In this document: positions 30,981 through 60,052 of the stretch, piece by piece
How positions within the stretch are numbered: the first letter of the stretch is position 1
Layout of the letters: the number at the start of each line of letters is the position of its first letter
DNA from: a plasmid
Sequence record: NZ_CP090008.1
DNA length: 64,000 nucleotides
Strand: one strand, 5' to 3'
Notes under the pieces: model-generated
What the model was told of the DNA's origin: nothing
The model's input: only the letters and a program-made list of their open reading frames with translations
Databases searched by the model: none
Position numbers and translations under genes: made by a program

Positions 30981-31778
30981 ATGACAATAAAAATTGAATC
31001 TGCTTGGGAAACCCTTTGTGATGCTTTCCCCAAGCTAAAGGATAATCCTCTTTACAAGGGTTGGTATATTAGCTATGCGATCCTTGTGACGTTTTCTATT
31101 TTGACGGTAGTTGTAGTGAACCATAGGGTTGTCTATGCTTTTCCGTTTGATTGGCTTGGTTTGCTTTTTGGAATTATCTTACCTTGGGTTTTTACAACCT
31201 TTTATATCGTATATCAAGGTGTGGACCATGCTCACCAGTTTACATCGACTAAAGTTGTTCTTGGGTTATTTATGTTACCAGTAATTCTGATTGGTTTTAC
31301 TTCTAATTTTAAGAATGAATATAGTTATAGCAATCGTATGGTTACTTCAGTTTTTGACCAAGAACTCACTCAACAAAGTTTCCACGCAACGAGGATTACA
31401 TCAAACCAACTTGATTACTTTAAGAAAGATAATGTCATTTTTCCTTATAAGAAGAATACGGCTTCAGAGATATATGTGTTCTTTAGACCTGATTGCCCTT
31501 ACTGTCAAAAATCAATTCCAGTACTCAACAAGAGCTTAACTGAAAAAGAACGAAACAAGATTATCTATGTTAATGTTCTTGACGAAAGTGGCAAGAATTT
31601 AGCTAAAGCTATGGGGGTAGAGAAAGCAGCAACAGCAGTTATCTATCATAAGGATAAGACTTCTGGTGGATGGTCCAAACTAATTGAACGAATGGCAGGT
31701 GGGAAGCATGCTGCACCTCGTCTTGATGAGGATGCTATTCGTGATATCGTATCAGTCGCAAAGGAGGAAACAAAATAA
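30981..31778 (+). CDS. Membrane-anchored thioredoxin-fold thiol-disulfide oxidoreductase
   Basis: Three N-terminal transmembrane segments, then a CxxC motif 'RPDCPYCQKSIPVL'. Confidence 0.6.
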   Translation: MTIKIESAWETLCDAFPKLKDNPLYKGWYISYAILVTFSILTVVVVNHRVVYAFPFDWLGLLFGIILPWVFTTFYIVYQGVDHAHQFTSTKVVLGLFMLPVILIGFTSNFKNEYSYSNRMVTSVFDQELTQQSFHATRITSNQLDYFKKDNVIFPYKKNTASEIYVFFRPDCPYCQKSIPVLNKSLTEKERNKIIYVNVLDESGKNLAKAMGVEKAATAVIYHKDKTSGGWSKLIERMAGGKHAAPRLDEDAIRDIVSVAKEETK

Positions 31779-32017
31779 TGTATTTATCAAAAACTCTAAG
31801 CAGGCTTAGCCTGCTAACTCATGACAGAAAAGAAAGTTCGGCTTATAATGAAGGTGAACAATACCAATCCGTTGTCTTTAATAGGGCTTTGCCTAGCCTG
31901 TATCAAAAACTGGATGAACAAGAGTCATGAGATAACTCGAATATGCCTTGAGCATGAAAATAAAATTACTAATAGCCTCTTGTTCTATTGTTCAATAGTT
32001 AACAGGAGGTTTTTGTA

Positions 32018-33185
32018 ATGGAAGTTATGATTGAAACTTGTTGTGGAATTGATGTCCACCAAAAGTCTATCGTTTGTTGTATTCTAGATGGTCCACTAGA
32101 AAGCAATAAACCTAAAAAGATTCAGAAAAAATTTGGTACAACAACTATAGCTCTCCAAAACGCCTTAGATTGGTTATTGGAAAATCACGTCACACATGTC
32201 TTTTTTGAAAGCACTGGCCAATATTGGGTACCACTCTTTAATATATTCTCAGACTCAGAACTCAATTTGATATTAGCTAACCCCCAACATATTAAGAATG
32301 TGCCTGGTCGAAAAACAGACATGAAAGATGCCGAATGGATTGCACAGCTCGGACGTTGTGGACTTATTGAGCCATCTTACATTCCAAGCCCTGAAGTGAT
32401 GCAGTTACGTTTACTCACTCGTAGGTTACGTTCTTACAAACAACGTCAAACTCAAATAAAGAATGAGATTCATAACCTCTTACAACGTGCTAATATCAAA
32501 CTAACCAGCTATCTTTCTGATATCTTCTCTAAGACAGGACAGTCTCTTTTAACGCTCTTTATCAATGGGGAACTCATTGATTATGACAATGTGACAGCTT
32601 GTATTCACAAGCATGTCAAAGCAAGTCCCGAAGAATTAATGGAGGCCATGAATGGGAAGTTGTCACTGGAGGATCGATTTCTCTTGGAGCAAAGCCTAGA
32701 AGAATATCAATTGTATCAAAAACTCATGAATAAATTAAGGAGTGAAATAATAGCTTATATCGAAAAGGAGTTTCCCTGAAGAAAATAGATTACTTCAAAT
32801 GATTCCTGGTGTGAGTGAAACTTGTGCAGCCACAATTTTAGCTGAGATTGGACCAGATGTGAAGGCTTTTCAATCAGACGCACACTTAGCTTCTTGGGCT
32901 GGGCTCTGCCCAGGATCTTATGAAAGTGCTGGCATTAAAAAATCCTCACATATCACGCAAGGAAATCGATATATCAAGCAGGCTTTGACCATGTCGGGAT
33001 TGATTGCGGCTCACTCTAAAGACAATGCGTTTTCATCTTTTTATAGCAAAATTTCCCAAAGAGGAAGTAAGATGAAAGCCGTCATTGCTTGCGCACATAA
33101 GCTACTTCGTATCATTTACAAAATTCTCGCAACACACCAAGAATACGACAAAGAAAAAGTGCTAGGACTGAGGCAACAGTTCTAA
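32018..33185 (+). pseudogene. IS110-family transposase, frameshifted and split into two ORFs
   Basis: The N-terminal DEDD-type domain 'IETCCGIDVHQKSIVCC' is at 32018-32779. The C-terminal IS116/IS110/IS902-type domain is in a different frame at 32799-33185 ('...SWAGLCPGSYESAG...'). Confidence 0.7.
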
Positions 33186-33249
33186 CACCAAAAATTTAAA
33201 AAATCTCAATTACAGTATAGCACAAGAAGAGTTTTTTGCGCTATTTTTA

Positions 33250-33885
33250 ATGTTTTTTTCAAATAAAAAAGACATTTCAGAATGGATTGCCAACCTAAAT
33301 GCAGGTGACGAGGTTGCTATTCAGAGAACACGTATGGATGGCATTGTAGTTTCTAGTGAGCGTTGTATTGTTGACAAGTGGTTAGGAAAGAGACTTATAG
33401 TTGTAGACGGAAAGCATTTTGTCCCTAGCACTGGTTTGAGACAAAGTAACTCTCTCGTATCAGGTCAAAAGACAATCGTGGAACAACTTTTCCCCTTAGA
33501 TGCTTTACTTTTATATGAGGAAGAACTTGCCAAAAGAGACACCATTATTCAAAATTTGAAAGAGTCTGCAGAACTTCTAGAGCACGCGCAGAATTATTCT
33601 TCTTTAGTTGTTTCTAGAGTGCTTCGTAAGTTGTCTGTACTGGACGTTGGGGATGTTTATGATCTAAATGAACTACGTTCCTCTAGTAACACAGAAGACT
33701 TAGAAGATAGTGCTTTATTGGATAGACGGAAACTCTCAGAGAAGAAACGTTGTCTAAAGACCCTTGACCGTATGCTTACGAACTTGAGTCAAGATAATAC
33801 CTTGGGTGCTTTTAAGTTAATCTCTCTTTTAGGAGAAGTAGCTTCTGAATTTACTGATTCTGAAAATGAGGTAAGTCAATGTTAG
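33250..33885 (+). CDS. hypothetical protein (211 aa)
   Basis: ORF only. Confidence 0.4.
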   Translation: MFFSNKKDISEWIANLNAGDEVAIQRTRMDGIVVSSERCIVDKWLGKRLIVVDGKHFVPSTGLRQSNSLVSGQKTIVEQLFPLDALLLYEEELAKRDTIIQNLKESAELLEHAQNYSSLVVSRVLRKLSVLDVGDVYDLNELRSSSNTEDLEDSALLDRRKLSEKKRCLKTLDRMLTNLSQDNTLGAFKLISLLGEVASEFTDSENEVSQC

Positions 33886-34547
33886 CCTATATCATTTTGT
33901 TTGTAGTTATGTTTGCTATCAAGTGTGTCACTCTTACTTTTGTAAAGAATAAAGAGTCTACAGTAGTCAGTACTTTTTTGAGTGGCACGAATCTGATTTT
34001 CCTTAATACTATTGTCTGGTTCCTACGATTAACAGCCATGACCCAATTTTATCTTTTAGTTGTGGACAATAATCTAACTGTTATCCCTATAATTGTTGGT
34101 TTTATTCTTCCCAATATCTTGTTCTGGTTTAAGAGTATTAAAGCTTCCTTATCGGATTTGCTTGTACGTTGGTTAAAATCAGTCATTGGTCATAAGTATA
34201 GAACATGCCCATTTTGTCATGAATCACATTTATTCTTTCGATACACCGAGGACCGCACGGCTGCTTATTACTATCTCTTGACAGAGGATGATAGTCTTGT
34301 GGCCATTGGAGATTTTGATAATAGTGATCACCCTGCACGATTCTTTTTAAGTAACGACGAATCGCATTTTGATGAACTGGCTGATACTATGCTACCTTAT
34401 ATGTTGCCTGGCATGGAAGAGGCGGTCTATGTAGGTGGGCGACAACAGCGATTGGCTAGAGCATTGTATTGTGTCGATTGCCAGGAACGAGTCAGTGAAG
34501 ATAGTGGGGTACAATTTGGCGAAGTGTTATTGAACAAGGTAAGCTAG
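33879..34547 (+). CDS. membrane protein with C-terminal Cys-rich (CPFC...CVDC) zinc-ribbon-like region
   Basis: Three transmembrane segments; 'CPFCHESH' and 'CVDCQERV'. Confidence 0.4.
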   Translation: MLAYIILFVVMFAIKCVTLTFVKNKESTVVSTFLSGTNLIFLNTIVWFLRLTAMTQFYLLVVDNNLTVIPIIVGFILPNILFWFKSIKASLSDLLVRWLKSVIGHKYRTCPFCHESHLFFRYTEDRTAAYYYLLTEDDSLVAIGDFDNSDHPARFFLSNDESHFDELADTMLPYMLPGMEEAVYVGGRQQRLARALYCVDCQERVSEDSGVQFGEVLLNKVS

Positions 34548-34574
34548 TTATTTCAAGTAGGAAATATAGTTGAA

Positions 34575-34645
34575 GTTCTCCTGAGACCATTTCACTAACT
34601 AGCGCTGCTTTTCTAGCTGTAAGGCTTCGTTACTATCCTATAACA
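34575..34645. mobile_element. IS3-family fragment (~70 bp)
   Basis: 'ctcctgagaccatttcactaactagcgctgcttttctagctgtaaggcttcg' matches 37636-37690 inside the IS3 element. Confidence 0.5.
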
Positions 34646-34673
34646 TATAGGTAAATCTCTGATCAAGCTACAA

Positions 34674-34708
34674 AAAAGCCAGCACTTTGAGTACTGGCTT
34701 TTTTGTAC
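34674..34708 (+). terminator. Rho-independent terminator
   Basis: aaaaaagccagcactttgagtactggcttttttgt. Confidence 0.6.
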
Positions 34709-34710
34709 AA

Positions 34711-35036
34711 TCTCTTTTAAATTATATTATTTGATTTTAATAGAAGTTAATTAATGTCCTAAAAAAAATCTTGTCCAATTCCACATAATTGCTACCTCTT
34801 TTATTCTCTTATTTTTTATGGTGTTATTGTATCAAAACTAAATGTTTTAACCCTTTTTTGTCGTTATCGAACAATAATTTATCAGAATCGGTAAAAATAA
34901 AACTTAGATAAGCAAAAAGTGATTAATTTAAGACCTCTTGTGATAATTGTAAAAATGATGCTGTGGTTGAAATATAATAGTCGTGTCAGTTAGGGAAACT
35001 AATAAGTGACCCGAATAGAATGAAAGGAGTAATAAG
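34711..35036 (+). repeat. Direct repeat A (~326 bp): promoter and 5' leader of the precursor gene; near-identical to 38247-38573
   Basis: ~95% identical over its full length to the region immediately upstream of the degenerate precursor copy next to the biosynthetic operon. Confidence 0.85.
34940..34985 (+). promoter_or_regulatory. Candidate promoter of the precursor array (-10 TATAAT at 34973-34978, ~55 nt upstream of the first start codon)
   Basis: 'ttgtaaaaatgatgctgtggttgaaatataat'; conserved in repeat B, where it reads 'gaagtataat'. Confidence 0.35.
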
Positions 35037-35195
35037 TTGAAAAACGAAAAAAATTTGCTCGAAGAGCTTGAAATTGACATTTTGGAGTTGGACGATGTAG
35101 AAGGTATTCCAGCAACAGCTGCATCAAGTGGTAGCGGTGGTAGTAGTACGTGTGGGTCAACCTCATGTTCATCATGTTCATCAAGTTGTGCTTAA
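35037..35195 (+). CDS. RiPP precursor peptide copy 1 (TTG start; LKNEKNLLEELEIDILELDDVEGIPATAASSGSGGSSTCGSTSCSSCSSSCA)
   Basis: RBS aaggag 8 nt upstream of TTG; 52 codons; the C-terminal 23 residues contain 13 Ser, 4 Cys and 2 Thr; acidic helical leader. Confidence 0.75.
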   Translation: MKNEKNLLEELEIDILELDDVEGIPATAASSGSGGSSTCGSTSCSSCSSSCA

Positions 35196-35245
35196 GGCAT
35201 AGTGCAATCATCTCGTTAAAAAAAGAAAGGAACATAAAATAAAGA

Positions 35246-35404
35246 ATGAAAGATGAAAAAAATTTGCTCGAAGAGCTTGAAATCGACATTTTGGAGTTGG
35301 ACGATGTAGAAGGTATTCCAGCAACAGCTGCATCAAGTGGTAGCGGTGGTAGTAGTACGTGTGGGTCAACCTCATGTTCATCATGTTCATCAAGTTGTGC
35401 TTAA
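35246..35404 (+). CDS. RiPP precursor peptide copy 2 (MKDEKNLLEELEIDILELDDVEGIPATAASSGSGGSSTCGSTSCSSCSSSCA)
   Basis: Identical unit; ATG start; RBS 'aaaggaac' upstream. Confidence 0.8.
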   Translation: MKDEKNLLEELEIDILELDDVEGIPATAASSGSGGSSTCGSTSCSSCSSSCA

Positions 35405-35454
35405 GGCATAGTGCAATCATCTCGTTAAAAAAAGAAAGGAACATAAAATAAAGA

Positions 35455-35613
35455 ATGAAAGATGAAAAAAATTTGCTCGAAGAGCTTGAAATCGACATTT
35501 TGAAGTTGGACGATGTAGAAGGTATTCCAGCAACAGCTGCATCAAGTGGTAGCGGTGGTAGTAGTACGTGTGGGTCAACCTCATGTTCATCATGTTCATC
35601 AAGTTGTGCTTAA
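35455..35613 (+). CDS. RiPP precursor peptide copy 3 (leader variant ILKLDD, E18K)
   Basis: 'tttgaagttggac' replaces 'tttggagttggac'. Confidence 0.8.
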   Translation: MKDEKNLLEELEIDILKLDDVEGIPATAASSGSGGSSTCGSTSCSSCSSSCA

Positions 35614-35663
35614 GGCATAGTGCAATCATCTCGTTAAAAAAAGAAAGGAACATAAAATAAAGA

Positions 35664-35822
35664 ATGAAAGATGAAAAAAATTTGCTCGAAGAGCTTGAAA
35701 TCGACATTTTGGAGTTGGACGATGTAGAAGGTATTCCAGCAACAGCTGCATCAAGTGGTAGCGGTGGTAGTAGTACGTGTGGGTCAACCTCATGTTCATC
35801 ATGTTCATCAAGTTGTGCTTAA
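35664..35822 (+). CDS. RiPP precursor peptide copy 4
   Basis: Identical repeat unit. Confidence 0.8.
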   Translation: MKDEKNLLEELEIDILELDDVEGIPATAASSGSGGSSTCGSTSCSSCSSSCA

Positions 35823-35872
35823 GGCATAGTGCAATCATCTCGTTAAAAAAAGAAAGGAACATAAAATAAAGA

Positions 35873-36031
35873 ATGAAAGATGAAAAAAATTTGCTCGAAG
35901 AGCTTGAAATCGACATTTTGGAGTTGGACGATGTAGAAGGTATTCCAGCAACAGCTGCATCAAGTGGTAGCGGTGGTAGTAGTACGTGTGGGTCAACCTC
36001 ATGTTCATCATGTTCATCAAGTTGTGCTTAA
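35873..36031 (+). CDS. RiPP precursor peptide copy 5
   Basis: Identical repeat unit. Confidence 0.8.
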   Translation: MKDEKNLLEELEIDILELDDVEGIPATAASSGSGGSSTCGSTSCSSCSSSCA

Positions 36032-36081
36032 GGCATAGTGCAATCATCTCGTTAAAAAAAGAAAGGAACATAAAATAAAGA

Positions 36082-36240
36082 ATGAAAGATGAAAAAAATT
36101 TGCTCGAAGAGCTTGAAATCGACATTTTGGAGTTGGACGATGTAGAAGGTATTCCAGCAACAGCTGCATCAAGTGGTAGCGGTGGTAGTAGTACGTGTGG
36201 GTCAACCTCATGTTCATCATGTTCATCAAGTTGTGCTTAA
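36082..36240 (+). CDS. RiPP precursor peptide copy 6
   Basis: Identical repeat unit. Confidence 0.8.
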   Translation: MKDEKNLLEELEIDILELDDVEGIPATAASSGSGGSSTCGSTSCSSCSSSCA

Positions 36241-36290
36241 GGCATAGTGCAATCATCTCGTTAAAAAAAGAAAGGAACATAAAATAAAGA

Positions 36291-36449
36291 ATGAAAGATG
36301 AAAAAAATTTGCTCGAAGAGCTTGAAATCGACATTTTGGAGTTGGACGATGTAGAAGGTATTCCAGCAACAGCTGCATCAAGTGGTAGCGGTGGTAGTAG
36401 TACGTGTGGGTCAACCTCATGTTCATCATGTTCATCAAGTTGTGCTTAA
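36291..36449 (+). CDS. RiPP precursor peptide copy 7
   Basis: Identical repeat unit. Confidence 0.8.
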   Translation: MKDEKNLLEELEIDILELDDVEGIPATAASSGSGGSSTCGSTSCSSCSSSCA

Positions 36450-36499
36450 GGCATAGTGCAATCATCTCGTTAAAAAAAGAAAGGAACATAAAATAAAGA

Positions 36500-36658
36500 A
36501 TGAAAGATGAAAAAAATTTGCTCGAAGAGCTTGAAATCGACATTTTGGAGTTGGACGATGTAGAAGGTATTCCAGCAACAGCTGCATCAAGTGGTAGCGG
36601 TGGTAGTAGTACGTGTGGGTCAACCTCATGTTCATCATGTTCATCAAGTTGTGCTTAA
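36500..36658 (+). CDS. RiPP precursor peptide copy 8
   Basis: Identical repeat unit. Confidence 0.8.
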   Translation: MKDEKNLLEELEIDILELDDVEGIPATAASSGSGGSSTCGSTSCSSCSSSCA

Positions 36659-36708
36659 GGCATAGTGCAATCATCTCGTTAAAAAAAGAAAGGAACATAA
36701 AATAAAGA

Positions 36709-36867
36709 ATGAAAGATGAAAAAAATTTGCTCGAAGAGCTTGAAATCGACATTTTGGAGTTGGACGATGTAGAAGGTATTCCAGCAACAGCTGCATCAAG
36801 TGGTAGCGGTGGTAGTAGTACGTGTGGGTCAACCTCATGTTCATCATGTTCATCAAGTTGTGCTTAA
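36709..36867 (+). CDS. RiPP precursor peptide copy 9
   Basis: Identical repeat unit; last of the array. Confidence 0.8.
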   Translation: MKDEKNLLEELEIDILELDDVEGIPATAASSGSGGSSTCGSTSCSSCSSSCA

Positions 36868-36924
36868 GGCATAGTGCAATCATCTCGTTAAAAAAGAAAG
36901 GAACATAAAATAAAAAAGGAAACA

Positions 36925-38215
36925 AGAGAAATAAGTAAAGGACTTAGTTCTGTATTTTACAGGACCAAGTCCTTTTAGTTTTACCTTGATTCGTTAATAA
37001 GAAAAATGGTCTAGCTTGTTCCAATTTACTTATTCGACTTAAATCTCTTTTCGGAATCGTTAAACATCTCAGACTTAAAGATGCCGAATAAGGTTTCCAT
37101 CATACTATTATCTATACTATTTCTCTGTAATATTTTGTTCTAGCATAACTATCACTTGTAACAAGTTCGATGACGTAGAAAGATTATAGGTAATAATTTC
37201 GCTATTAACGTTATCTAAAATTAGCGACAAATAGAGTTTTTAGCTGTTTACTGGAATGGCAAATTCTGTCACATCTGAGTAGCATTCTTTTCATTGATTT
37301 TTGATGTTTCAAATAGGTGATGATTAAGATTCTATGCTTTCTTGCGAACCTATCTTTGGTAGGAATAATACTTCCGTTTACGACGTATTCTAGCGATTAA
37401 GCCAAGAACTTTCATCAAACGTTGGATCTTTTTATGATTTATCACAAAGCCATGTTTTCCCAATTTAAGAGTCATTCGACGATAACCATAATTTCCTTTA
37501 TGCTCATAATAAATTGTCTGAATTTCGTCTTTAAACTATTTCTCTTTGTCAAGCCCCTCCAGTTGCTTCAACTGATAGTAGTAAGTTGAGCGAGGTAAAC
37601 GAGCCGTTTCAAGAAGCAAATCTAGTCGAAATCCTCCTGAAGCCATTTCTCTAATTGTCTCTGCTTTTCTCGCTGTAAGGCTTCGTCCCTGTCTTCTAGC
37701 TCTTTTAACTTTTTTAGGTAAGCCACCTCGGTACGTAAGCGTTCATTCTCCTCTTGGAGTCGCTCTAGTTCTGTCATTTCTTCCCAAGATTTCTTATGTT
37801 TACGTCCCATTTTAGGTGCTCCCCCTCTTGTTTTCTCAACAATAGTATACCCATTTTTCTTGTATTGTGCTGTCCAATTTGTCAATAGCGAAGGATTCGG
37901 TAGAGCATAATCTAAAGATACACTTTTTCGTGAACGACCTTCAAGTAGGACTTTATCAATCATTTCTTGTTTTAGTTCTGGAGAATAGTAACAATTCTTA
38001 CCTTTCTTGACAATTTCTACTCCGTAACGATCAATTAATTTCACCATGTACTTTAGACCAGAAACATCCACATCAAATTTTTTTGAAAGCTGTTTGAAGC
38101 TTTGTCCTTGTTTTCTTAGTTCATAAATCTGAACTTTATCGTCATAACTCAATTTCATAATAAAACACCCCAAAAGTTAGATTTTTTCTGTCTAACTTTT
38201 GGGGTGCAGTTCATC
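36925..38215 (-). mobile_element. IS3-family (IS150-group-like) insertion sequence with intact orfA and truncated or decayed orfB
   Basis: Left inverted repeat 'tgaactgcaccccaaaagttagacagaaaaaatctaacttttgggg' (revcomp of 38165-38215); orfA at 37622-38173. The orfB N-terminus is recognisable (revcomp of 37380-37620 reads ...RLPRSTYYYQLKQLEGLDKEK...) but the distal part (36930-37370) carries no ORF. Confidence 0.75.
37622..38173 (-). CDS. IS3-family transposase OrfA (helix-turn-helix plus leucine zipper)
   Basis: '[30 protein letters not shown]' HTH region; C-terminal coiled coil '[24 protein letters not shown]'. Confidence 0.8.
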
Positions 38216-38246
38216 AGTGTATTAGGAGTCATTAATTTTTAACAAT

Positions 38247-38573
38247 TTCTTTTAAGTTATATTATTTGATTTTAATAGAAGTTGATTAATGTCCTAAAAA
38301 AAATCTTGTCCAATTCCACATAATTGCTACCTCTTTTTATTCTCTTATTTTTTATGGTGTTATTGTATCAAAACTAAATGTTTTAACCCTTTTTTGTCGT
38401 TATCGAACAATAATTTATCAGAATCGGTAAAAATAAAACTTAGATAAGCAAAAAGTGATTAATTTAAGACCTCTTGTGATAATTGTAAAAATGATGCTGT
38501 GGTTGAAGTATAATAATCGTGTCAGTTAGGAGAGCTAATAAATGACCCCAGATAGAATGAAAGGAGTAATAAG
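38247..38573 (+). repeat. Direct repeat B (~327 bp): second copy of the precursor promoter/leader region
   Basis: Near-identical to 34711-35036. Confidence 0.85.
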
Positions 38574-38710
38574 TTGAAGATCGAAAAAATTTACAAGAAG
38601 AGTTTGAAATCGACATTTTGGAGTTAGATGATATAGAAGGAATTCCATTAACAGATGTATCAAGTGGTAATTATTACGTATGGAATAACCTTATGCTCAT
38701 CAAGTTTTGA
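38574..38710 (+). pseudogene. Degenerate tenth precursor gene (frameshifted N-terminus; core replaced by a Cys-free sequence)
   Basis: TTG AAG ATC GAA AAA ATT TAC AAG AAG AGT TTG AAA TCG ACA TTT TGG AGT TAG. The leader-like 'EIDILELDDIEGIP' is recognisable only in another frame, and the C-terminus reads ...SSGNYYVWNNLMLIKF with no Cys. Confidence 0.7.
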
Positions 38711-38816: not shown

Positions 38817-39593
38817 ATGAGAAATTTAAAATATGTCATCCAAGAGGACAGTATGCTGCTATCATATTTTGGAAAAAGATGTAGGATTGCTTTACCTAAA
38901 AAGCTATCTAAGGATGAAGTTCTACAACTAGTTATTTCAAATATAAATGAAATTTTTGGATTAAAGCAAGAGTTTTCAAAATCACTCACCATGTTTAAGA
39001 TTGGGGAACAAATCTTTCGACTTCCCAAGGAAGCCGAAACTTCCTTAAAACGCTTTTTCCCAGCTATAAGATTACTTTCTGAGGAAGAAGAGTCTTTACT
39101 GAGACAAAATTTGCAGTTTCTAGGAAATTTGAAAGGAACGTTCTACCTTAAAACAGATGGAAAGCAAATGATTCATCAATTAGAAGAAGGAATTTCTATT
39201 TATCACGTGCTGGACCAAGCAGACACTATATTTAAAACACCAACTATTAATCGTCTTCTAGATATTAATATTTTGAAAAATATATATTTTGAGAGTTTAA
39301 TAGACTCATTTGATATCATCAATCGTCAAGGAACATGTCACTTAGAAATTTTTACTAATGAAAAAGAAAAATATAGTTTTGATGATACCAACATGGAGGA
39401 TCTTGTTTTTAAAGCAGTCAAAAAAATAATGGAGTCTAAACTAAGTTATAGATACGTAGGCATAGGGAGAAATAGAGGCGAATGCCTTGAGGATTATTTG
39501 ATGAAACATGGTGCCTCTAGTACTCCTATATTTTGTCAAGATAGTTTATCGAAATTCTTGGGTCTTGTACTTGCTAAGAAGGAGAATCTATGA
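38817..39593 (+). CDS. Hypothetical protein, first gene of the biosynthetic operon (258 aa)
   Basis: ORF in an operon context; overlaps the next gene by 4 nt. Unassigned; a candidate leader-recognition or scaffold protein. Confidence 0.5.
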   Translation: MRNLKYVIQEDSMLLSYFGKRCRIALPKKLSKDEVLQLVISNINEIFGLKQEFSKSLTMFKIGEQIFRLPKEAETSLKRFFPAIRLLSEEEESLLRQNLQFLGNLKGTFYLKTDGKQMIHQLEEGISIYHVLDQADTIFKTPTINRLLDINILKNIYFESLIDSFDIINRQGTCHLEIFTNEKEKYSFDDTNMEDLVFKAVKKIMESKLSYRYVGIGRNRGECLEDYLMKHGASSTPIFCQDSLSKFLGLVLAKKENL

Positions 39594-41320
39594 ATATTCA
39601 GCAATACGTAAAAGTAATACTGTCAAAATCTTGTGAAACACAGCCAATAGAGCTAGTCTACCAAGGGATGAGGTTATATTTTGGAGAACTGGATTATTTT
39701 TACTCAAACAGAGTAGAAGAAGGGATAATCATTTTCTGGGATGAAGACAAACTGATTGTAAGTCCCGTATTTCATAAGAAAGAAAAAAATTGTAGCATCT
39801 GTTTCTTAGAACATCGGAGGAAATTTAAAATAGATGATTCTATTGGAAGAGATGGCGACACGATTGAAATAGAGGATAACAATTTATTTGAAGAAAAATT
39901 TCTTTACGTAATATCTAACCTGATACAGGTCAAATCGCAGCCTCCTTTATTTGATTATTTTATAATTGAGGATTGGAAAATTTCAAAGTGTCAATTCTTT
40001 CGAATTGCTAATTGTGACACCTGTATTTCTAATAGAGAAAGTGTAGAAGAGATCTTGGCTACAGGAAATAGTCGTTGCCAGGCATCCTCTTTGAGAGAAA
40101 AGTTGGGAGATTATTCTGCTTATATTCAATTGGGTAATTCTGATACTGGGATTTTCAATAGAGAGTTAACAACTCTACTAGATAATGGTGTAACGGTTGA
40201 ACTACAATACTCACTTTCTAATAATGAGATTATTTCGGGAATTGGTATTGATAAAAGCTATAAAAGAGCAAAAGCTAAGGCATTTCTAGAAGCGATGGAA
40301 CGTTATAGTGGCATTACCTCCAAGGGGCAGAAACGATATTGGTTCTCCATAGAAGACTTGAGAGGGAAGTCAATCGATTTCCTAAATCCTAACGATTATT
40401 TTCTTGAACTTGAGAAAGAAGAGGTGGCTAGTACGAATAAATTTTTCTGGTTGCCAGCTTACAATTACCAAAGTAATGACTATGCTTTAATACCTGAAGA
40501 TTTTATCATTTATAAAACAGAGAGAACTCCTGAAAGTAAAAAATTAATGAATATGAGTTCAAATGGACATGCAATTGGAAATAGCTATAAAGAAGCGGTT
40601 ATTTTTTCACTTTTTGAAATGTACGAACGAGATCATTTTCTTGTTCATTGGTACGAGAAACAGCCACCTCAAGAAATAAATCAAGATAGCATTCTAGATG
40701 AAGATATTCACCATTATTTAAGTATGATTAAAAACTTAGGGTATGAGGTCTCGATTTATCAAATGCTTTCTAGCAAGGTGATAAGCATTTATTGGACCAT
40801 CGCTAGAGGAAAAAATGGTAGCAAGTTTGCGACTTATTCAACAGCAGGTGCTCATCTTTTTGGAAAGACGGCAATTATTTCTGCATTAAAAGAGCTATAT
40901 TTTGCACTTTATATTTATGATGAAGACGTCGAACATATTAAAGAAAATGGGCGACAAATGCAAGCTCAAGATGTTAAAACTGTGGCAGATCATGCAATTT
41001 ATTATTCAATTGAGGATAGAAGTATACAGTTTAATTTTTTGAAAGGTGTAGAGGTTATCGATTTTGAAATAAAAGATGACTACTCTATCGAGTTAGATTC
41101 CTACTATTCAGATCTATTGGAGTTTACGAATAAGCTATTTGGGAATTTTTATATCGTAGATAATACCCCAAAAGGTTTGAAGGAAATTGGGTTATGCGAG
41201 GTGAAAGTGTTTGTTCCTGGTATGCAAGATATGAATTTTGGTTATGCAAATCAGTACATCAATCACCAGCGGATTCATCTGGACGGTAATCAGGAAGTAC
41301 CAATTCACCCCTTCCCATAA
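39590..41320 (+). CDS. YcaO-domain protein 1 (azoline-forming cyclodehydratase-type; 576 aa)
   Basis: YcaO ATP-binding motifs 'KAFLEAMERYSG' and 'SNGHAIGNSYKEAVIFSLFEMYERD'; C-terminal PxPxP-type tail 'VPIHPFP*'. Confidence 0.75.
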   Translation: MNIQQYVKVILSKSCETQPIELVYQGMRLYFGELDYFYSNRVEEGIIIFWDEDKLIVSPVFHKKEKNCSICFLEHRRKFKIDDSIGRDGDTIEIEDNNLFEEKFLYVISNLIQVKSQPPLFDYFIIEDWKISKCQFFRIANCDTCISNRESVEEILATGNSRCQASSLREKLGDYSAYIQLGNSDTGIFNRELTTLLDNGVTVELQYSLSNNEIISGIGIDKSYKRAKAKAFLEAMERYSGITSKGQKRYWFSIEDLRGKSIDFLNPNDYFLELEKEEVASTNKFFWLPAYNYQSNDYALIPEDFIIYKTERTPESKKLMNMSSNGHAIGNSYKEAVIFSLFEMYERDHFLVHWYEKQPPQEINQDSILDEDIHHYLSMIKNLGYEVSIYQMLSSKVISIYWTIARGKNGSKFATYSTAGAHLFGKTAIISALKELYFALYIYDEDVEHIKENGRQMQAQDVKTVADHAIYYSIEDRSIQFNFLKGVEVIDFEIKDDYSIELDSYYSDLLEFTNKLFGNFYIVDNTPKGLKEIGLCEVKVFVPGMQDMNFGYANQYINHQRIHLDGNQEVPIHPFP

Positions 41321-41345
41321 TCTTATAATTAAAAGAGGATAAAAA

Positions 41346-42188
41346 ATGAATTTAATTGAAATTAACAATTTAAGAAAAAACTATGGCGTAAAAGAAGTCT
41401 TGAAAGGTTTGGATTTGTCCCTAAAGAATGGTCAAGTTTATACATTGCTTGGAAAAAACGGTGCAGGGAAAACAACATTTATCAATATTTTACTTAGACT
41501 AATCAAGGAAGATTCTGGTAGCGTAGTCTCAAACGTTAGCGTAAAAAAAGAAGTTGGTGTAGTCTTTCAGGAAGACTATTTTCCAAAAGAGACAACAGTT
41601 TCGGATTTGATAAAGCTACAAGCTTCATTTTTCCATAAGAAGGTTAATGTTGATGAAGAATTAAAAATAATGGGATTAGAGAAAGAGAAGTTTCAAAAGG
41701 TAGGAACACTTTCGGGAGGACAAAAACGGAAACTTTCGTTCCTATTAGCGACCTTACATGATCCTAAACTTTTGATTTTGGATGAACCTACTGCTGGTAT
41801 GGATTATGATAGTGTAGAAAAGTTTGTTCAACAGATTAAAAAATTAAAGGCAAAGGGAAAAACAATTCTCTTAATTACACACGATTTGTACCAAATTGAA
41901 TCTTTTGCAGATTATATTCTGTTGCTAAATGAAGGTGTATTCGAAGAGAAAATCTCAGTAAATGATATGTTTATGGAATCGTTGTATGAATTTCCCAAAG
42001 AGATGGTTATGAGTGGAGCTGCGAAGGAGCAATTGTTTTATAAGAATGATCAAACTTATGTTTTCAGTAGTCCATACGCACAAAAAATAATTGAACAAAA
42101 TGGTATTAGGAATCCAGAAAACTTTAAGCGTCATAAACAAGTAGTAGATATTTTCAAACGTATTTCATTTGTAGAAGGAGATAAATAA
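41346..42188 (+). CDS. ABC transporter ATP-binding protein
   Basis: Walker A 'GKNGAGKTT', ABC signature 'LSGGQKRK', Walker B 'LLILDEPT'. Confidence 0.85.
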   Translation: MNLIEINNLRKNYGVKEVLKGLDLSLKNGQVYTLLGKNGAGKTTFINILLRLIKEDSGSVVSNVSVKKEVGVVFQEDYFPKETTVSDLIKLQASFFHKKVNVDEELKIMGLEKEKFQKVGTLSGGQKRKLSFLLATLHDPKLLILDEPTAGMDYDSVEKFVQQIKKLKAKGKTILLITHDLYQIESFADYILLLNEGVFEEKISVNDMFMESLYEFPKEMVMSGAAKEQLFYKNDQTYVFSSPYAQKIIEQNGIRNPENFKRHKQVVDIFKRISFVEGDK

Positions 42189-42907
42189 TGATTTCAATTG
42201 TTCAGCAGATAAAAAATAGTTTACAAAATAAGCGATTTATCATTTTTACGATTTTATTCCCAGTGGTATTTTACGTTTTCTTTATAAAGCAACTTAAGTT
42301 TGTAAACACAGATGATAGTGGAATGATTGCATTGTTTTCTGCTATGTTTGGAATCGCAGGAAGTGGCTTGAACACCTTTAGTCAAAAAGTATCGAAAGAC
42401 AAAGACTACTTCCGTATTATGGATAAAATCTCGCCCTATTCTTATGCACATTATATGTTTGATAGTGTATTAGCACAAACGATCTTGAATATTTTAATTT
42501 TGTTCTCAGTTACTTTAGCTGGTGTATTGATTGGTAAATTAAATGTAACAGGGTCTTACTTGTCAATTTCTAGTCTCCTGCTATACTTTGGCTTTTATTA
42601 TATTGTTATTGGCTTCCTATTAGGAACAGTATTTAATGATGAAACACTTGCTTCTGCCTCAATGCCAATCTTTTTCCTATTCATGATGCTTAATATTACT
42701 CCAAATATCATGACAACATTAAAAATGCCAGATATCATTGTAACGATTCAGAAATTTTTCCCGGGCTATTATTATAATGAAGTTTTATTGCATCAGACTC
42801 CAGAAAAGTTCTTACAAGCATGCTTGGTCATTACAATTTATGTTTTTATCGCAGGGACTATCACAGTAATTGTAAATAAATTGTTACAAATTAATAGGAG
42901 AGACTAA
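42188..42907 (+). CDS. ABC-2-type transporter permease (6 TM)
   Basis: Start is translationally coupled to the ATPase stop (ATGA overlap); multiple hydrophobic helices. Confidence 0.65.
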   Translation: MISIVQQIKNSLQNKRFIIFTILFPVVFYVFFIKQLKFVNTDDSGMIALFSAMFGIAGSGLNTFSQKVSKDKDYFRIMDKISPYSYAHYMFDSVLAQTILNILILFSVTLAGVLIGKLNVTGSYLSISSLLLYFGFYYIVIGFLLGTVFNDETLASASMPIFFLFMMLNITPNIMTTLKMPDIIVTIQKFFPGYYYNEVLLHQTPEKFLQACLVITIYVFIAGTITVIVNKLLQINRRD

Positions 42908-44001
42908 TGGTAGAAATGACTTCAGATAGGTTGTTTTCACACTATGAACAATTACATAGGCGACCTGAGCCAGGTTTTTCAGAAGAAAAAACTAAGTGTT
43001 ATATTAAAGACTTCTTAAGTCCATATCCAGAACTAAAAAAAATTTCGGAAGGTAAGATGGGATTGATTTATCAATACGTAGGGCGAAAGGAAGAAAAACA
43101 TCATTATGATTTAGCTTTTCGTGCTGAATTAGATGCTGTAGAAATGGATGAATTCTATGGAACCTACTATCATGGTTGTGGACATGATGCACATACAAGT
43201 ATCCAACTGGAATTAATCACCTATGTTTGTCGTAACAAACCAAAGCTAAATGTACTTTTCATTTTTCAAGCAAGTGAAGAAAAGTATGGTGGTGCAAAAG
43301 AAGTTTGTAAGTTTTTGAAAGACAAAAGGATTACTTTATCGAGAATATATGCTTTACACGTTACCTCGGATTTGTATCCCAATTATGTATCAATCAATAA
43401 GGGAGACATTCTAGCTGCTGGTTTGACTTGCCATTTAAAACTTTCATTAAAGAATAGTGGACATGTCAGTAATCATGGGGACAGTGCAGCGAGTTTATTT
43501 TCTAAATTAGTTTTACTATCAGAAAGCCTAGATGAACTGGATTGTCAGTGTAGAATTACTAACTTTTTCACCAATGGCTCTCATAATGTATCTCCTACAG
43601 AAATAAAATTTAATATTACGTTTAGAGGAAAAAGTAGTGATATTTGCAAGCAGCAACATCAGAAATTTTTAGATCAGTTAAACCTAGAATATCAAAAGGA
43701 AGTTATTATGGATTATCCTTTATTACATAATAATACAATGCTATATGAATGGGTTGAACAAGTATTATCTCAAAGTAAAGTAGTAAAGACTCTAAAAACT
43801 CCATTTTTGTTTTCTTGTGATGATTTTGCCTTCTATGGAAAAGAGCTAGATGTACCGACATGTTATTTCTTTATTGGTGCATATAGTCAGGGTCATCCGA
43901 TTCATTCGAATGAATTTATTACACCGAAGGCTAGCTTATTAAGAGGTTTGTATGTGATGACATTATTGATAGAAAAGGAGAATGAGCGAATTAATGGTTA
44001 A
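42907..44001 (+). CDS. M20-family (M20D-like) amidohydrolase/peptidase
   Basis: Metal-binding signature 'YHGCGHDAHT'. Confidence 0.6.
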   Translation: MVEMTSDRLFSHYEQLHRRPEPGFSEEKTKCYIKDFLSPYPELKKISEGKMGLIYQYVGRKEEKHHYDLAFRAELDAVEMDEFYGTYYHGCGHDAHTSIQLELITYVCRNKPKLNVLFIFQASEEKYGGAKEVCKFLKDKRITLSRIYALHVTSDLYPNYVSINKGDILAAGLTCHLKLSLKNSGHVSNHGDSAASLFSKLVLLSESLDELDCQCRITNFFTNGSHNVSPTEIKFNITFRGKSSDICKQQHQKFLDQLNLEYQKEVIMDYPLLHNNTMLYEWVEQVLSQSKVVKTLKTPFLFSCDDFAFYGKELDVPTCYFFIGAYSQGHPIHSNEFITPKASLLRGLYVMTLLIEKENERING

Positions 44002-46513: not shown

Positions 46514-46530
46514 GAAAAGAGGAGGAGATT

Positions 46531-47607
46531 ATGGTATATAAATTATCTGTATTTATCAATGATTTAGCTTTTTCAAACAGTCTAATCATTAAGATTTATA
46601 GTTTTTTAAATAATAAAGCAATTAAAGAAATTTGGGTGAAGAAATCAATTCAGCGTGGCCACCATCTTGAATTGTTTTCTCTCAATAAAGAGTATTTGAA
46701 GACAATGGAAGATTTTATTGTTGGAGAACTGTCAAGTTATTCCCCAGTTAATGTTCCTGAAATGAAATTAAAGAAGCAAATCATGAGTGTTGCAGCTGCA
46801 GAAAACACGGAGGCTGACTTAAATATTCAACCGGATGGGACAATTCTGTTTGAAGAAGTTGAAGAACTATATCAAGATAAAGTTAGGTTAAATTCCTATG
46901 AGACTGAGTTGGTTGTGGAAAAGAAAAAGATGGAGTTGATTCTCTATCTTGAAAGTATAGGATTCTTCAACGAGCCTGAAAATCAGCAAAATATTTTATT
47001 GGTTAAACTATTCTTAAATTTAGGGTTACTTTTTAATAACAATTTAAAAATGGGTTATCTATCTATGAAGTCAAATATTCTATTCTTTAACTTACAACTG
47101 GAGAAGTTGAAGGGTACAATGTCGCCGGAGAAGTATAAACGGTATCATCACTTAGTTAATTTTCTAGATGAGACAGAACAGAGTTATATCAATGAGAATA
47201 TTGAAATCTTTCTGAATGAAAATAAAAGTTCATTCTATAAGCAATTTGTAGAAGAACTTTATCAATTTTTTAGTGATGAATTTGAAAAAGGAAACCTTTA
47301 TTATGAAAACCTAAGTGATGCAGAGAGTTTTGTTCAGAAATCACGAAAGAATGGTCAGATAACAGATTTTCACAAAAAATTCTTTACGAATCAAGCTTTT
47401 CTTTCCCATCATGCTTCGGAACCCTTTGTGATTTATCGTTATACAGTTGATGTTCTTTATCAAATTATGCCGTTGTTAAACGTTAATCCGCTTCGAAAAC
47501 AGAAAATTACAAAAATGGTAAGTGATAAGGTTGAGACAGGCTATGATATGACCTGGGAAGACAGTTATGCTGACATGCAAGAATTATTTAACAAGAAGGT
47601 ACAATAA
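46531..47607 (+). CDS. Putative LanB C-terminal (SpaB_C-like elimination) domain protein - split-LanB partner (~358 aa)
   Basis: Size and position match the arrangement in thiopeptide and goadsporin clusters; RBS 'agaggagga' before ATG 46531. By inference only. Confidence 0.35.
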   Translation: MVYKLSVFINDLAFSNSLIIKIYSFLNNKAIKEIWVKKSIQRGHHLELFSLNKEYLKTMEDFIVGELSSYSPVNVPEMKLKKQIMSVAAAENTEADLNIQPDGTILFEEVEELYQDKVRLNSYETELVVEKKKMELILYLESIGFFNEPENQQNILLVKLFLNLGLLFNNNLKMGYLSMKSNILFFNLQLEKLKGTMSPEKYKRYHHLVNFLDETEQSYINENIEIFLNENKSSFYKQFVEELYQFFSDEFEKGNLYYENLSDAESFVQKSRKNGQITDFHKKFFTNQAFLSHHASEPFVIYRYTVDVLYQIMPLLNVNPLRKQKITKMVSDKVETGYDMTWEDSYADMQELFNKKVQ

Positions 47608-49792: not shown

Positions 49793-49798
49793 TATAAT

Positions 49799-51520: not shown

Positions 51521-51537
51521 AAGCAAGGAGAATTGTT

Positions 51538-60049: not shown

Positions 60050-60052
60050 TCT

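Follow-up and report, generated by a model that had tools for sequence, protein, structure and literature searches.

The window analysed here is a stretch of 64,000 nucleotides of plasmid DNA (record NZ_CP090008.1), in which Tandem Repeats Finder detected one array, at 35038-36922, with a period of 209, 9.0 copies, 99% matches, 0% indels and a score of 3721. The open reading frame listing gave nine ORFs of 52 codons on the plus strand, spaced by exactly 209 bp, the first of which starts with TTG at 35037 while the other eight all start with ATG. Nine 209-bp units with complete 52-codon ORFs had been proposed in a sequence-only reading of the same DNA, and both analyses bore this out. The putative precursor genes are the following.

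35037-35195, plus strand: precursor gene, unit 1 (TTG start, MKNEK...; strong Shine-Dalgarno sequence AAAGGAG 6 nt upstream)
35246-35404, plus strand: precursor gene, unit 2 (MKDEK..., consensus sequence)
35455-35613, plus strand: precursor gene, unit 3 (leader variant E17K)
35664-35822, plus strand: precursor gene, unit 4
35873-36031, plus strand: precursor gene, unit 5
36082-36240, plus strand: precursor gene, unit 6
36291-36449, plus strand: precursor gene, unit 7
36500-36658, plus strand: precursor gene, unit 8
36709-36867, plus strand: precursor gene, unit 9

Upon unit-by-unit comparison, units 2, 4, 5, 6, 7 and 8 were 100% identical in DNA. Unit 3 differed by a single substitution (G>A at 35503), which is responsible for E17K, and unit 9 deviated solely in its last two bases, where the array meets the unique flank. 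Unit 1 is preceded by a 5' UTR and a Shine-Dalgarno site of its own and carries three coding changes (the TTG start, D3N and one synonymous change). Apart from E17K and D3N, the encoded peptides are the same in leader and core, and the C-terminal 23 residues (SSGSGGSSTCGSTSCSSCSSSCA) are identical in all nine units. Nine equal cores at an exact spacing of 209 bp are beyond chance. The 96-aa minus-strand ORFs that repeat through the array were dismissed as genes, being a by-product of the periodicity. A CRISPR array was also dismissed, in agreement with the earlier reading, since whole 209-bp units are repeated, including the 50-bp intergenic part, with no unique spacers.

As six units are indistinguishable, the count of nine holds only if the original assembly had reads longer than about 1.3 kb. 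An assembly artefact, in which repeat expansion produced the count or even the whole array, has in its favour that the number of base-identical units is uncheckable from sequence alone, and that, in metagenome assemblies from short reads, the locus is collapsed to 2-3 units or broken at the array. However, the usual error is collapse and not expansion, and independent complete records contain 7 units (pIKMIN-B501, NZ_CP054154.1) and 8 units (CP145864.1), marked in each case by internal variants of their own. Furthermore, the junction between wild-type unit 2 and the E17K unit 209 bp later was seen independently in a metagenome contig (L024), and the E17K variant recurs in four independent metagenome contigs. 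An artefact is therefore considered extremely unlikely. The numbers of 7, 8 and 9 units in three assemblies also agree with the unstable, recombining array that had been suggested.

The 52-aa peptide passes the curated cut-offs of two NCBIfam thiazolylpeptide-precursor models, NF033400 (43.2 bits versus a cut-off of 30) and TIGR03892 (40.6 bits versus 25). Ser, Thr and Cys make up 14 of its last 16 residues, Ala is the C-terminus, and every unit and every relative has SSSCA at residues 48-52. Residue 36 is variable among the relatives (S/Y/F/H) and the ungapped alignment to the thiocillin leader stops at residue 35, so that the core probably comprises the last 16-17 residues and not the 23 first assumed, although the identity of that longer stretch in all units stands. 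With such a core, the product is expected to be lighter than the 1.5-2.3 kDa originally put forward.

A complete thiopeptide gene cluster is located at 38817-52284, 1.9 kb downstream of the array, with all its genes intact.

38817-39593, plus strand: 258-aa protein, no domain match; first gene throughout this thiopeptide cluster family
39590-41320, plus strand: YcaO-domain protein, first of two, 576 aa (Pfam YcaO, 147.8 bits)
41346-42907, plus strand: ABC transporter, ATPase of 280 aa and ABC-2 permease of 239 aa (domain matches), likely for export or self-protection
42907-44001, plus strand: M20-family metallopeptidase, 364 aa (Pfam Peptidase_M20, 75.7 bits), possibly for peptide trimming
43982-46513, plus strand: split LanB-type dehydratase, putative glutamylation part, 843 aa
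46510-47607, plus strand: [4+2] pyridine synthase homologue, 365 aa (structure match)
47608-48135, plus strand: 175-aa protein, no domain match
48113-49792, plus strand: YcaO cyclodehydratase of the SagD family, 559 aa (TIGR03604, 246.3 bits versus a cut-off of 219)
49799-50707, plus strand: LanB C-terminal-type glutamate-elimination protein, 302 aa (Pfam Lant_dehydr_C, 123.8 bits)
50708-51520, plus strand: SagB/ThcOx-type FMN dehydrogenase, 270 aa (Pfam Nitroreductase, 36.3 bits; orthologue annotated SagB/ThcOx)
51493-52284, plus strand: 263-aa protein, last operon gene, no domain match

For the 843-aa protein, the Lant_dehydr_N score of 26.8 bits is just below the cut-off of 28; the protein matches PDB entry 6ec7, 'Lantibiotic dehydratase domain protein' (E = 1.7e-4), and its pIKMIN-B501 orthologue is annotated as lantibiotic dehydratase. 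When the AlphaFold2 model of the 365-aa protein (pLDDT 88.6, pTM 0.87) was submitted to Foldseek, the top 12 PDB matches were all PbtD/TbtD pyridine synthases or an entry named '[4+2] aza-cyclase' (E = 1e-8 to 9e-6, TM up to 0.67/0.76). The match of this protein to the NCBIfam model TbtD_PbtD (NF045556) was weak, 25 bits versus a cut-off of 325, and phmmer gave no match in the PDB. The predicted fold points to the 365-aa protein as the class-defining [4+2] aza-cycloaddition enzyme. A precursor of the appropriate family, a YcaO protein with an FMN dehydrogenase, a split LanB pair whose glutamylation protein is the weaker match and, as judged from the model, a pyridine synthase were consequently found together, as defines a thiopeptide cluster. 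This enzyme set and the two family matches uphold the thiopeptide-type precursor of the sequence-only reading, and they support the array peptide as the putative precursor of an uncharacterised thiopeptide. No paper describing this Streptococcus salivarius thiopeptide array or cluster was found, and the window showed no additional gene for ribosomal protein L11.

Between the array and the enzyme operon, two degenerate features are present.

37137-38213, minus strand: truncated IS3-family element
38574-38705, plus strand: decayed precursor gene (tenth copy), in the ancestral precursor position immediately before the enzyme genes

The IS3 element has an intact orfA (37622-38173) and a fragmented orfB, matches Pfam HTH_Tnp_1 and HTH_38, and is 86-87% identical to annotated IS3 transposase genes of S. 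equinus and S. salivarius plasmids; in other strains, IS110 copies fill the same gap. In the decayed precursor, a 1-nt deletion after codon 4, also present in the pIKMIN-B501 counterpart, shifts the leader into another frame than that of the TTG start, and in the three-frame translations the leader frame is devoid of a start codon. Its 'core' (SSGNYYVWNNLMLIKF) contains no Cys; compared with unit 1, the leader is 77% and the core 59% identical.

The expression signals around the array and the candidate regulator are the following.

34669-34707, no strand: inverted repeat with 18-nt arms (94% complementary) and a 3-nt loop, flanked by A and T runs
34708-35036, plus strand: array promoter region and 5' UTR, paralogue of 38236-38574
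36937-36975, plus strand: array intrinsic terminator, a 17-bp stem followed by TTTAGTTTTA
38236-38574, plus strand: second promoter copy, with the same direct-repeat box at 38455-38485 and TATAAT at 38509-38514
53297-55378, plus strand: two-component system, LytTR response regulator of 243 aa (LytTR, 76.4 bits) and AgrC/ComD-like HATPase_c_5 histidine kinase of 437 aa (HATPase_c_5, 66.7 bits)

By its structure, the inverted repeat is a predicted bidirectional terminator, closing the upstream 222-aa gene and forming the left edge of the array transcription unit, and the duplicated promoter segment starts directly after this hairpin, at 34708. The array promoter contains two direct repeats (GTGATTAATT and GTGATAATTG) 21 bp apart at 34919-34949 and a TATAAT -10 hexamer at 34973-34978, for which no good -35 was found. 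The two promoter copies are 95-98% identical upstream of the -10 and 98% identical across the box and -10; the second one presumably drives the enzyme operon. The direct repeats and the -10 are conserved upstream of the precursor genes of Streptococcus sp. UMB0029, a metagenome relative (L014) and Enterococcus cecorum, and the 64,000 nt contain just two instances of the box pattern, versus 0.37 expected by chance. Their conservation and spacing make the direct repeats a candidate LytTR response-regulator box, and the LytTR two-component system a candidate regulator of both promoter copies. On the right side, the terminator is a strong one: the RNA fold of 36868-36990 has an energy of -25.5 kcal/mol (z = -3.0 versus shuffles), and the terminator scan also matches 36961-36973. 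With a hairpin on each side and a duplicate of the cluster promoter in front, the array is predicted to be its own transcription unit.

As announced by the earlier reading, a Shine-Dalgarno-like sequence (AGAAAGGA, duplex of about -10 kcal/mol) is carried by all nine units. In units 2-9 it is nevertheless separated from the ATG by 13 nt; the corresponding distance is 6 nt for unit 1 and 5-7 nt among relatives. The sites of units 2-9 are thus probably sub-optimal, which argues against maximised translation per copy.

The degenerate features allow another reading, in which the array is out of use and the cluster a relic, either silent or decaying: insertion sequences have invaded the gap here and elsewhere, the original precursor at 38574-38705 is dead, and in S. 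thermophilus the precursor is found only as truncated or frameshifted versions (P0006, P0008). Against it, each of the 12 operon ORFs has its full length. Between the window and pIKMIN-B501, 10 of the 12 cluster genes had enough substitutions and gave dN/dS values of 0.04-0.34, with no indels; of the other two, one has 0 non-synonymous changes and one is undefined (3 non-synonymous, 0 synonymous). These values indicate purifying selection on the enzyme cluster. The near-identity of the promoter copies over box and -10 also speaks against a relic, as does the listing of the exact precursor sequence in 420 blocks of a public assembly collection, so that the element is common and maintained. A relic is accordingly regarded as very unlikely.

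Among relatives, a single precursor copy was found in E. cecorum and S. equinus ATCC 33317, two diverged copies with Tyr or Phe in the core in Streptococcus sp. UMB0029, at least three copies in the metagenome relative L012, and two core types on scaffold L013. The copies of E. cecorum, S. equinus, UMB0029 and L012 are always directly upstream of the enzymes, and in L012, L020, L021 and L035 the precursor genes directly adjoin the modification genes, uninterrupted by any transcriptional break. When the arrays of the window and pIKMIN-B501 were compared, fixed differences were observed at about 15 of the 50 spacer positions and at four coding positions, all four of which are synonymous and common to every unit of a given array. 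Within one array the units are uniform, and arrays of different strains differ only at spacer and synonymous positions; this pattern suggests concerted evolution with selection on the peptide.

These comparisons also bear on whether copy number matters at all. It might be a neutral by-product of RecA-dependent unequal exchange, nine being a snapshot with no benefit for production. Such drift would fit the variation between 7, 8 and 9 units and the unfavourable Shine-Dalgarno spacing of units 2-9, as well as the state of the pIKMIN-B501 array, in which one unit is frameshifted and another is missing one codon, pointing to relaxed selection on individual copies. The intact clusters of single-precursor relatives fit it too and indicate that amplification is not required for the pathway. 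Yet 7-9 units are present in each of the three long S. salivarius-type assemblies and 1-3 units in none, even though arrays normally lose units more easily than they gain them; no fixed non-synonymous difference separates the arrays in spite of about 30% spacer divergence; and the array is framed by a dedicated promoter copy and a terminator. We consider neutral drift unlikely, while granting it an appreciable chance. It is likely, in our opinion, that on an S. salivarius megaplasmid the gene for the precursor of an uncharacterised thiopeptide was amplified in tandem and that the resulting array is kept for dosage; we infer precursor dosage to be its likeliest function.

According to this dosage explanation, the 209-bp units would be kept identical, and their number shifted, by unequal crossing-over or gene conversion among them. 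A RiPP precursor is spent at one molecule per molecule of product, whereas the enzymes turn over, and the amplification may be kept on that account: nine cistrons on one mRNA would provide more substrate without higher enzyme levels. The LytTR response regulator of the cluster probably switches on both promoter copies together via the direct repeats spaced by 21 bp. In the peptide, the leader (approximately residues 1-35/36) would guide the enzymes, Cys would be converted into thiazole and Ser/Thr into dehydro-residues or oxazole, and [4+2] pyridine formation, with release of the leader, would take place as in lactazole at an oxazole-Dha-thiazole site supplied by the C-terminal S-S-S-C-A.

The closest parallel, already drawn by the sequence-only reading, is thiocillin of Bacillus cereus ATCC 14579, for which PMC5100339 confirms four identical tandem precursor genes, tclE-H, encoding a 52-residue precursor. 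Both systems have several identical precursor genes in direct tandem (nine units, six of them DNA-identical, in the window), an acidic leader of the same family fitting TIGR03892 (33% identity over 30 ungapped residues with TclE, E = 0.002) and the same enzyme logic of YcaO, dehydrogenase, split LanB and pyridine synthase. In tcl, the precursor genes adjoin the modification genes and are not known to be split from them by a transcriptional break. In contrast, the window array is a separate transcription unit with its own promoter and terminator, parted from the operon by the terminator 36937-36975, the IS3 remnant and the second promoter copy, and a dead copy occupies the operon-proximal slot. 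The window further differs in having nine copies instead of four and in containing two YcaO proteins as well as an M20 peptidase. Its core (STCGSTSCSSCSSSCA versus SCTTCVCTCSCCTT in thiocillin) is unrelated and lacks a C-S-C motif flanking the second pyridine-forming Ser.

The C-terminal S-S-S-C-A is shared with LazA, the precursor of lactazole A from Streptomyces lactacystinaeus, in which Ser10-Ser11-Ser12-Cys13(-Ala14) is indispensable for macrocyclisation, with oxazole-11, Dha-12 as the 4-pi component and thiazole-13 (PMC7210931). LazA has a low Ser/Thr/Cys content, an unmodified Trp2 and residues 15-16 beyond Ala14, and the laz cluster has only five enzymes, LazB-F (PMC7210931). Unlike this, the window core has Ser, Thr or Cys in 14 of its last 16 positions and ends at Ala, and the cluster consists of 12 genes, including a second YcaO, the M20 peptidase and separate elimination (302 aa) and dehydrogenase (270 aa) proteins, in a Firmicute and not an actinomycete. 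In LazA, the residues following Ala14 are QPQDM.

Plasmid-borne thiopeptides of human-associated Firmicutes were reportedly described by Donia et al. 2014 (lactocillin in Lactobacillus gasseri, micrococcin P1 in staphylococci). As in these cases, the cluster studied here is carried by a mobile replicon of a human commensal. The lactocillin and micrococcin P1 clusters are described with a single precursor gene and have thiocillin-like cores, in contrast with the nine precursor genes of the S. salivarius window, whose cluster is known from its genes alone. Lactocillin is mentioned in PMC12282076. In cyanobactin clusters, which are multi-precursor RiPP loci used for diversification (PMC4603692), one enzyme set also serves more than one precursor gene. 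The varied cores of the relatives UMB0029 and L013 resemble that pattern, whereas all nine window cores are identical and multiply the amount, not the chemical diversity.

A further proposal, which joins two ideas, is that the array acts as a recombination-driven rheostat and that its product may be a new structural type of thiopeptide; we regard this combination as quite improbable. If the first part were true, frequent gain and loss of 209-bp units would produce subpopulations differing in their output of a quorum-regulated antibiotic. If the second were true, the novelty would lie in a lactazole-style SSSCA cyclisation site combined with a fully Ser/Thr/Cys core. Known natural thiopeptide rings are all 26- to 35-membered (range quoted in PMC7210931). 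The lactazole ring has 32 atoms; if Ser36 or Ser37 (as residue 1) pairs with Ser50, the macrocycle of the window product would have 38-41 atoms and, once formed, would be larger than those of all known natural thiopeptides.

The thiocillin-like multi-copy pattern is already known and is taken further here, where the enzyme cluster, the duplicated promoter, the terminators and the decayed tenth copy are added to the earlier reading. Among human oral commensals, S. salivarius is dominant and one of the most abundant; it is also sold as a probiotic, and its megaplasmids are known to carry lantibiotics. For natural-product discovery, the thiopeptide cluster of this species, which is widespread, intact and apparently undescribed, is a concrete target; because short-read assemblies collapse or break at the array, genome-mining surveys will under-count both the copies and the cluster. 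The series of strains with 1, 2, 7, 8 and 9 copies suits a direct test of dosage. In addition, the array is a natural experiment on a general RiPP problem, the balance between a stoichiometrically consumed precursor and catalytic enzymes, which this lineage appears to solve by gene amplification and promoter duplication instead of the usual single strong precursor gene.

Analysis of the window with Tandem Repeats Finder revealed one array at 35038-36922, with 9.0 copies of period 209, 99% matches and no indels. Nine 52-codon ORFs were found on the + strand, the first starting with TTG at 35037 and the others with ATG at 209-bp intervals between 35246 and 36709. The nine consecutive 209-bp coding units proposed by the sequence-only reading thus stand as claimed. 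The precursor peptide encoded by the units is MKDEKNLLEELEIDILELDDVEGIPATAASSGSGGSSTCGSTSCSSCSSSCA. Units 2 and 4-8 have exactly the same sequence; unit 3 shows a single substitution (35503 G>A, leading to E17K), unit 1 has its own 5' UTR and three coding changes, and unit 9 deviates solely at its junction with the unique flank. Since six of the units are indistinguishable, the exact count depends on how long the reads behind the original assembly were. When a single 209-nt unit was folded, z was -0.9, and it was therefore concluded that the spacers contain no processing or stabilising hairpin. Two other sets of ORFs repeating with the array (96 aa on the minus strand and 30 aa in an alternative frame) match no family and were rejected as periodicity artefacts, not genes.

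To our knowledge, nine is the highest copy number of a thiopeptide precursor gene. Thiocillin is encoded by four identical precursor genes (PMC5100339), compared with nine near-identical ones here.

Related loci were retrieved by using as bait the 258-aa protein encoded by the first gene of the enzyme operon, which is specific to the cluster family.

Precursor copies in the window and in related loci
Enterococcus cecorum: 1 copy, core ...GG-H-STCGSTSCSSCSSSCA
S. equinus ATCC 33317: 1 copy, core as in E. cecorum
Streptococcus sp. UMB0029: 2 copies, sharing 89% identity and carrying Tyr or Phe at the variable position
Metagenome locus L012: at least 3 copies, period 197, core ...SALPFR-STCAACSCSSCSSSCA; the contig begins inside the array
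pIKMIN-B501: 7 copies, five intact, one missing a codon and one frameshifted
CP145864.1 (2.25-Mb record): 8 copies, followed by an IS110
Window: 9 copies

In E. cecorum, S. equinus ATCC 33317, UMB0029 and L012, the precursor gene or genes lie directly 5' of the 258-aa gene, and a detached array was found, among the compared loci, in the S. salivarius type only. In short-read assemblies of this type, either 2-3 units are present or the contig stops at the array, as expected from repeat collapse. Creation of the array by faulty assembly is unlikely, given that three independent assemblies each carry their own marker variants and that the junction of the E17K unit recurs in metagenomes. Scaffold L013, where 54-aa SALPFR-type and 52-aa SGGS-type precursors adjoin the same enzyme genes, represents an array of mixed cores or else a mis-scaffold; it was left out of the copy counts for its runs of N and 2592-bp self-repeat, which give it the look of a mis-scaffold.

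From 16.5 to 55.5 kb, the window aligns at about 92-97% identity, block by block, with S. salivarius DB-B5 plasmid pIKMIN-B501 (NZ_CP054154.1), in which the same genes are annotated, including six 'thiazolylpeptide-type bacteriocin' CDS. The window also encodes ParA, a Rep3-type initiator, PcfJ/PcfK, a VirB11-like ATPase and McrBC, and therefore belongs to a megaplasmid or plasmid-derived element. The exact 52-aa sequence was found in 420 blocks of a public assembly collection, mainly human metagenomes; judged by such matches, the element is common. In PLSDB, the array is present in one plasmid record only (pIKMIN-B501), the remaining matches being to an IS3 remnant. Among GTDB species representatives the 258-aa gene occurs in two loci only, and the S. 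salivarius representative is therefore without the cluster. Two S. thermophilus precursor records (P0006 and P0008) hold truncated or frameshifted versions only, and one S. thermophilus precursor runs in the wrong frame into the 258-aa gene, consistent with decay of the cluster in a dairy species.

The peptide matched two NCBIfam models of thiazolylpeptide-type bacteriocin precursors, NF033400 with 43.2 bits (curated cut-off 30) and TIGR03892 with 40.6 bits (curated cut-off 25). Its leader aligned without gaps, at 33% identity over 30 residues, with the leader of thiocillin TclE. Position 36 varies across the family (S, Y, F or H); both this variability and the TclE alignment place the putative first core residue at Ser36 or Ser37. 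The C-terminus is S-S-S-C-A in every family member. In lactazole, the residues of this same motif cannot be altered without loss of macrocyclisation: Ser11 becomes an oxazole, Ser12 a dehydroalanine entering the pyridine and Cys13 a thiazole, and Ala14 matters too (PMC7210931). By analogy, the second pyridine-forming residue would be Ser50. Extrapolating from this, the pairing of Ser36 or Ser37 with Ser50 would give a ring of 38-41 atoms, whereas the known natural thiopeptide rings have 26-35 (PMC7210931). Other residues may pair instead, for example Ser41 with Ser50, which would give a 26-membered ring. The unmodified 16-residue core STCGSTSCSSCSSSCA has a calculated mass of about 1456.46 Da; azole formation (-20 Da each), dehydration (-18 Da each) and pyridine formation would lower this to roughly 1.15-1.35 kDa in a fully processed product.

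An operon of 12 genes begins 1.9 kb 3' of the array and extends on the + strand from 38817 to 52284.

Products of the enzyme operon
258-aa protein, gene 1: no domain match
YcaO protein, 576 aa: Pfam, 147.8 bits
ABC ATPase and ABC-2 permease: domain matches
M20 peptidase: domain match
LanB-type glutamylation protein, 843 aa: Lant_dehydr_N with 26.8 bits, narrowly missing the cut-off of 28; PDB 6ec7, E = 1.7e-4
Pyridine synthase homologue, 365 aa: AlphaFold2 fold comparison; weak model match
175-aa protein: no domain match
SagD-family YcaO, 559 aa: TIGR03604, 246 bits against a cut-off of 219
LanB C-terminal elimination protein: 123.8 bits
Nitroreductase/SagB-type dehydrogenase: domain match
263-aa protein: no domain match

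The 365-aa protein matched a pyridine-synthase sequence model weakly, and a phmmer search of PDB sequences gave no match. Its AlphaFold2 model (pLDDT 88.6, pTM 0.87) had as its top twelve structural matches the pyridine synthases PbtD and TbtD and an entry titled [4+2] aza-cyclase, with E values from 1e-8 to 9e-6; by the fold of the predicted model alone, this protein is a pyridine synthase homologue. With YcaO proteins, a dehydrogenase, the LanB parts and a pyridine-synthase fold all found, the defining enzymes of a thiopeptide pathway are all present. When the operon genes of the window were compared with those of pIKMIN-B501, dN/dS was 0.04-0.34 in ten of the 12, the other two being too similar between the plasmids to be rated, and none contained indels. 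This argues for a pathway in use; that the cluster persists as a silent relic is unlikely in view of the intact ORFs and the low dN/dS.

A bidirectional terminator hairpin (34669-34707) closes the gene upstream of the array. The region that follows runs from 34708 to about 35178 and is paralogous to 38236-38706, in front of the operon. The two copies are 95% identical far upstream and 98% over a 60-bp promoter core, and identity is lower downstream (88% for the 5' UTR, 77% for the codons of the leader and 59% for those of the core). Both contain an identical 31-nt element (34919-34949 and 38455-38485) with the direct repeats GTGATTAATT and GTGATAATTG exactly 21 bp apart, and a TATAAT lies 24 nt 3' of these repeats, unaccompanied by a good -35. 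Repeats, spacing and -10 alike are kept 5' of the precursor genes of E. cecorum, Streptococcus sp. UMB0029 and metagenome locus L014, and the repeat pattern occurs in the window at no site beyond the two copies. In a scan for the sigma-70 consensus, promoter matches were no commoner than in shuffled sequence and the conserved TATAAT was missed because the -35 is absent; the promoter assignment is therefore based on conservation across species. After unit 9, a hairpin at 36937-36975 has a 17-bp stem and a T-rich tail (-25.5 kcal/mol, z = -3.0). No Rfam family was detected in the whole window at gathering thresholds.

The operon-proximal slot is occupied by a tenth, dead precursor copy (38574-38705), in which a 1-nt deletion past codon 4 puts the TTG start out of register with the leader; the leader frame terminates in SSGNYYVWNNLMLIKF, without Cys. 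The identical deletion is found in pIKMIN-B501, and the pseudogene is therefore older than the split of the two plasmids. In another reading frame, the 3' part of the dead copy reads ...TYGITLCSSSF, and the copy may derive from a paralogue with a different core. One predicted promoter type precedes two units: a monofunctional nine-cistron precursor unit with a strong terminator, and an enzyme operon led by the dead precursor.

Features beside the array and the operon
about 37137-38213, - strand: truncated IS3 element between the array terminator and the second promoter copy
53297-54028: LytTR response regulator just 3' of the operon
53297-55378: pair formed by this LytTR response regulator and an AgrC/ComD-like kinase, just 3' of the operon

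The gap between terminator and second promoter holds an IS110 in two related loci (L004, 10445-11797; L011, 11903-13105) and the IS3 remnant in the window, and it appears to be a landing zone for insertion sequences.

The layout of the repeat boxes fits an activator of the LytTR type, and they are a candidate binding site for the regulator at 53297-54028. A search beside this pair for a double-glycine-leader pheromone gene, covering ORFs of 20 aa or more in 52250-53320 and 55350-56100, found nothing convincing. Beside the single-copy cluster of S. equinus ATCC 33317 (L035), a C39-peptidase ABC exporter and an HATPase_c_5 kinase are encoded at 946-3096 and 1-652. This is a classic setting for a peptide pheromone or bacteriocin, a hint that the cluster family has long been under quorum regulation.

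In units 2-9 a Shine-Dalgarno-like AGAAAGGA (spacers, window 35226-36708) forms a good duplex with the 16S tail (about -10 kcal/mol) and lies 13 nt from the ATG, as it also does in the otherwise diverged spacers of pIKMIN-B501; this distance is 6 nt in unit 1 and 5-7 nt in all relatives. Each of units 2-9 may therefore be translated only modestly. Such low output per copy may be made up for by amplification or, alternatively, the weak spacing may just be tolerated thanks to the many copies.

The 24 units of the three long assemblies (window, CP145864.1 and pIKMIN-B501) were aligned. One spacer type is common to the window and CP145864.1, from which pIKMIN-B501 differs at about 15 of 50 spacer positions and at four coding positions, these differences being common to all its repeated units. 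All four coding differences are synonymous, leaving no fixed non-synonymous one. Uniformity within arrays together with divergence between them indicates concerted evolution, driven by either unequal exchange or gene conversion, while the peptide is under purifying selection. Both array types and the L012 family have homologous spacers, and the first duplication is therefore ancestral. Neutral drift in copy number, which would fit the variation in unit number and the decayed units of pIKMIN-B501, is a rather improbable account: it leaves unexplained the retention of 7-9 units in all long assemblies, the invariance of the peptide, and the array's own promoter copy and terminator.

Identity to pIKMIN-B501 is a mosaic, which suggests recombination between plasmid lineages: it is about 92% (dS near 0.24) over 33248-36900, that is, two upstream genes and the array, about 97% (dS near 0.08) in the flanks of this segment, and >99% in the 3' third of the operon (48113-55378). 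Three genes 5' of the array (30981-34547) encode a 265-aa thioredoxin-like membrane protein, a 211-aa protein and a 222-aa protein with CxxC pairs; they are kept directly next to the array in the S. salivarius-type loci checked, though not in more distant relatives, and may serve in immunity or in redox handling. In the window, they are interrupted by an inserted, split IS110 transposase (32018-33185; 253 + 128 aa). Other plasmid cargo includes a 1838-aa SNF2 helicase with an Eco57I-like methylase region (2144-7660, - strand), a 190-aa RelA/SpoT-like protein (12856-13428, - strand) and a DUF6994-NUDIX-AAA_5/McrBC block (57283-61354, + strand), which looks like a restriction or defence island.

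Array and operon would be co-induced, probably via the LytTR system, and the array would increase the precursor-to-enzyme ratio, which is relevant because one precursor is consumed per product molecule. The S. salivarius copies are already labelled by NCBI's pipeline, and no paper on this cluster, its product or the array was found in the literature on S. salivarius or megaplasmid thiopeptides, the core sequence and multi-copy precursors, in a search that covered few subscription journals. Multi-copy identical precursors are known; the architecture is unusual in some respects, namely the copy number, the detached and separately terminated array, the promoter duplication, the fossil precursor, and the copy-number polymorphism with concerted evolution. 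No new principle is involved; the cluster makes a good target for discovery and offers a natural test of precursor dosage.
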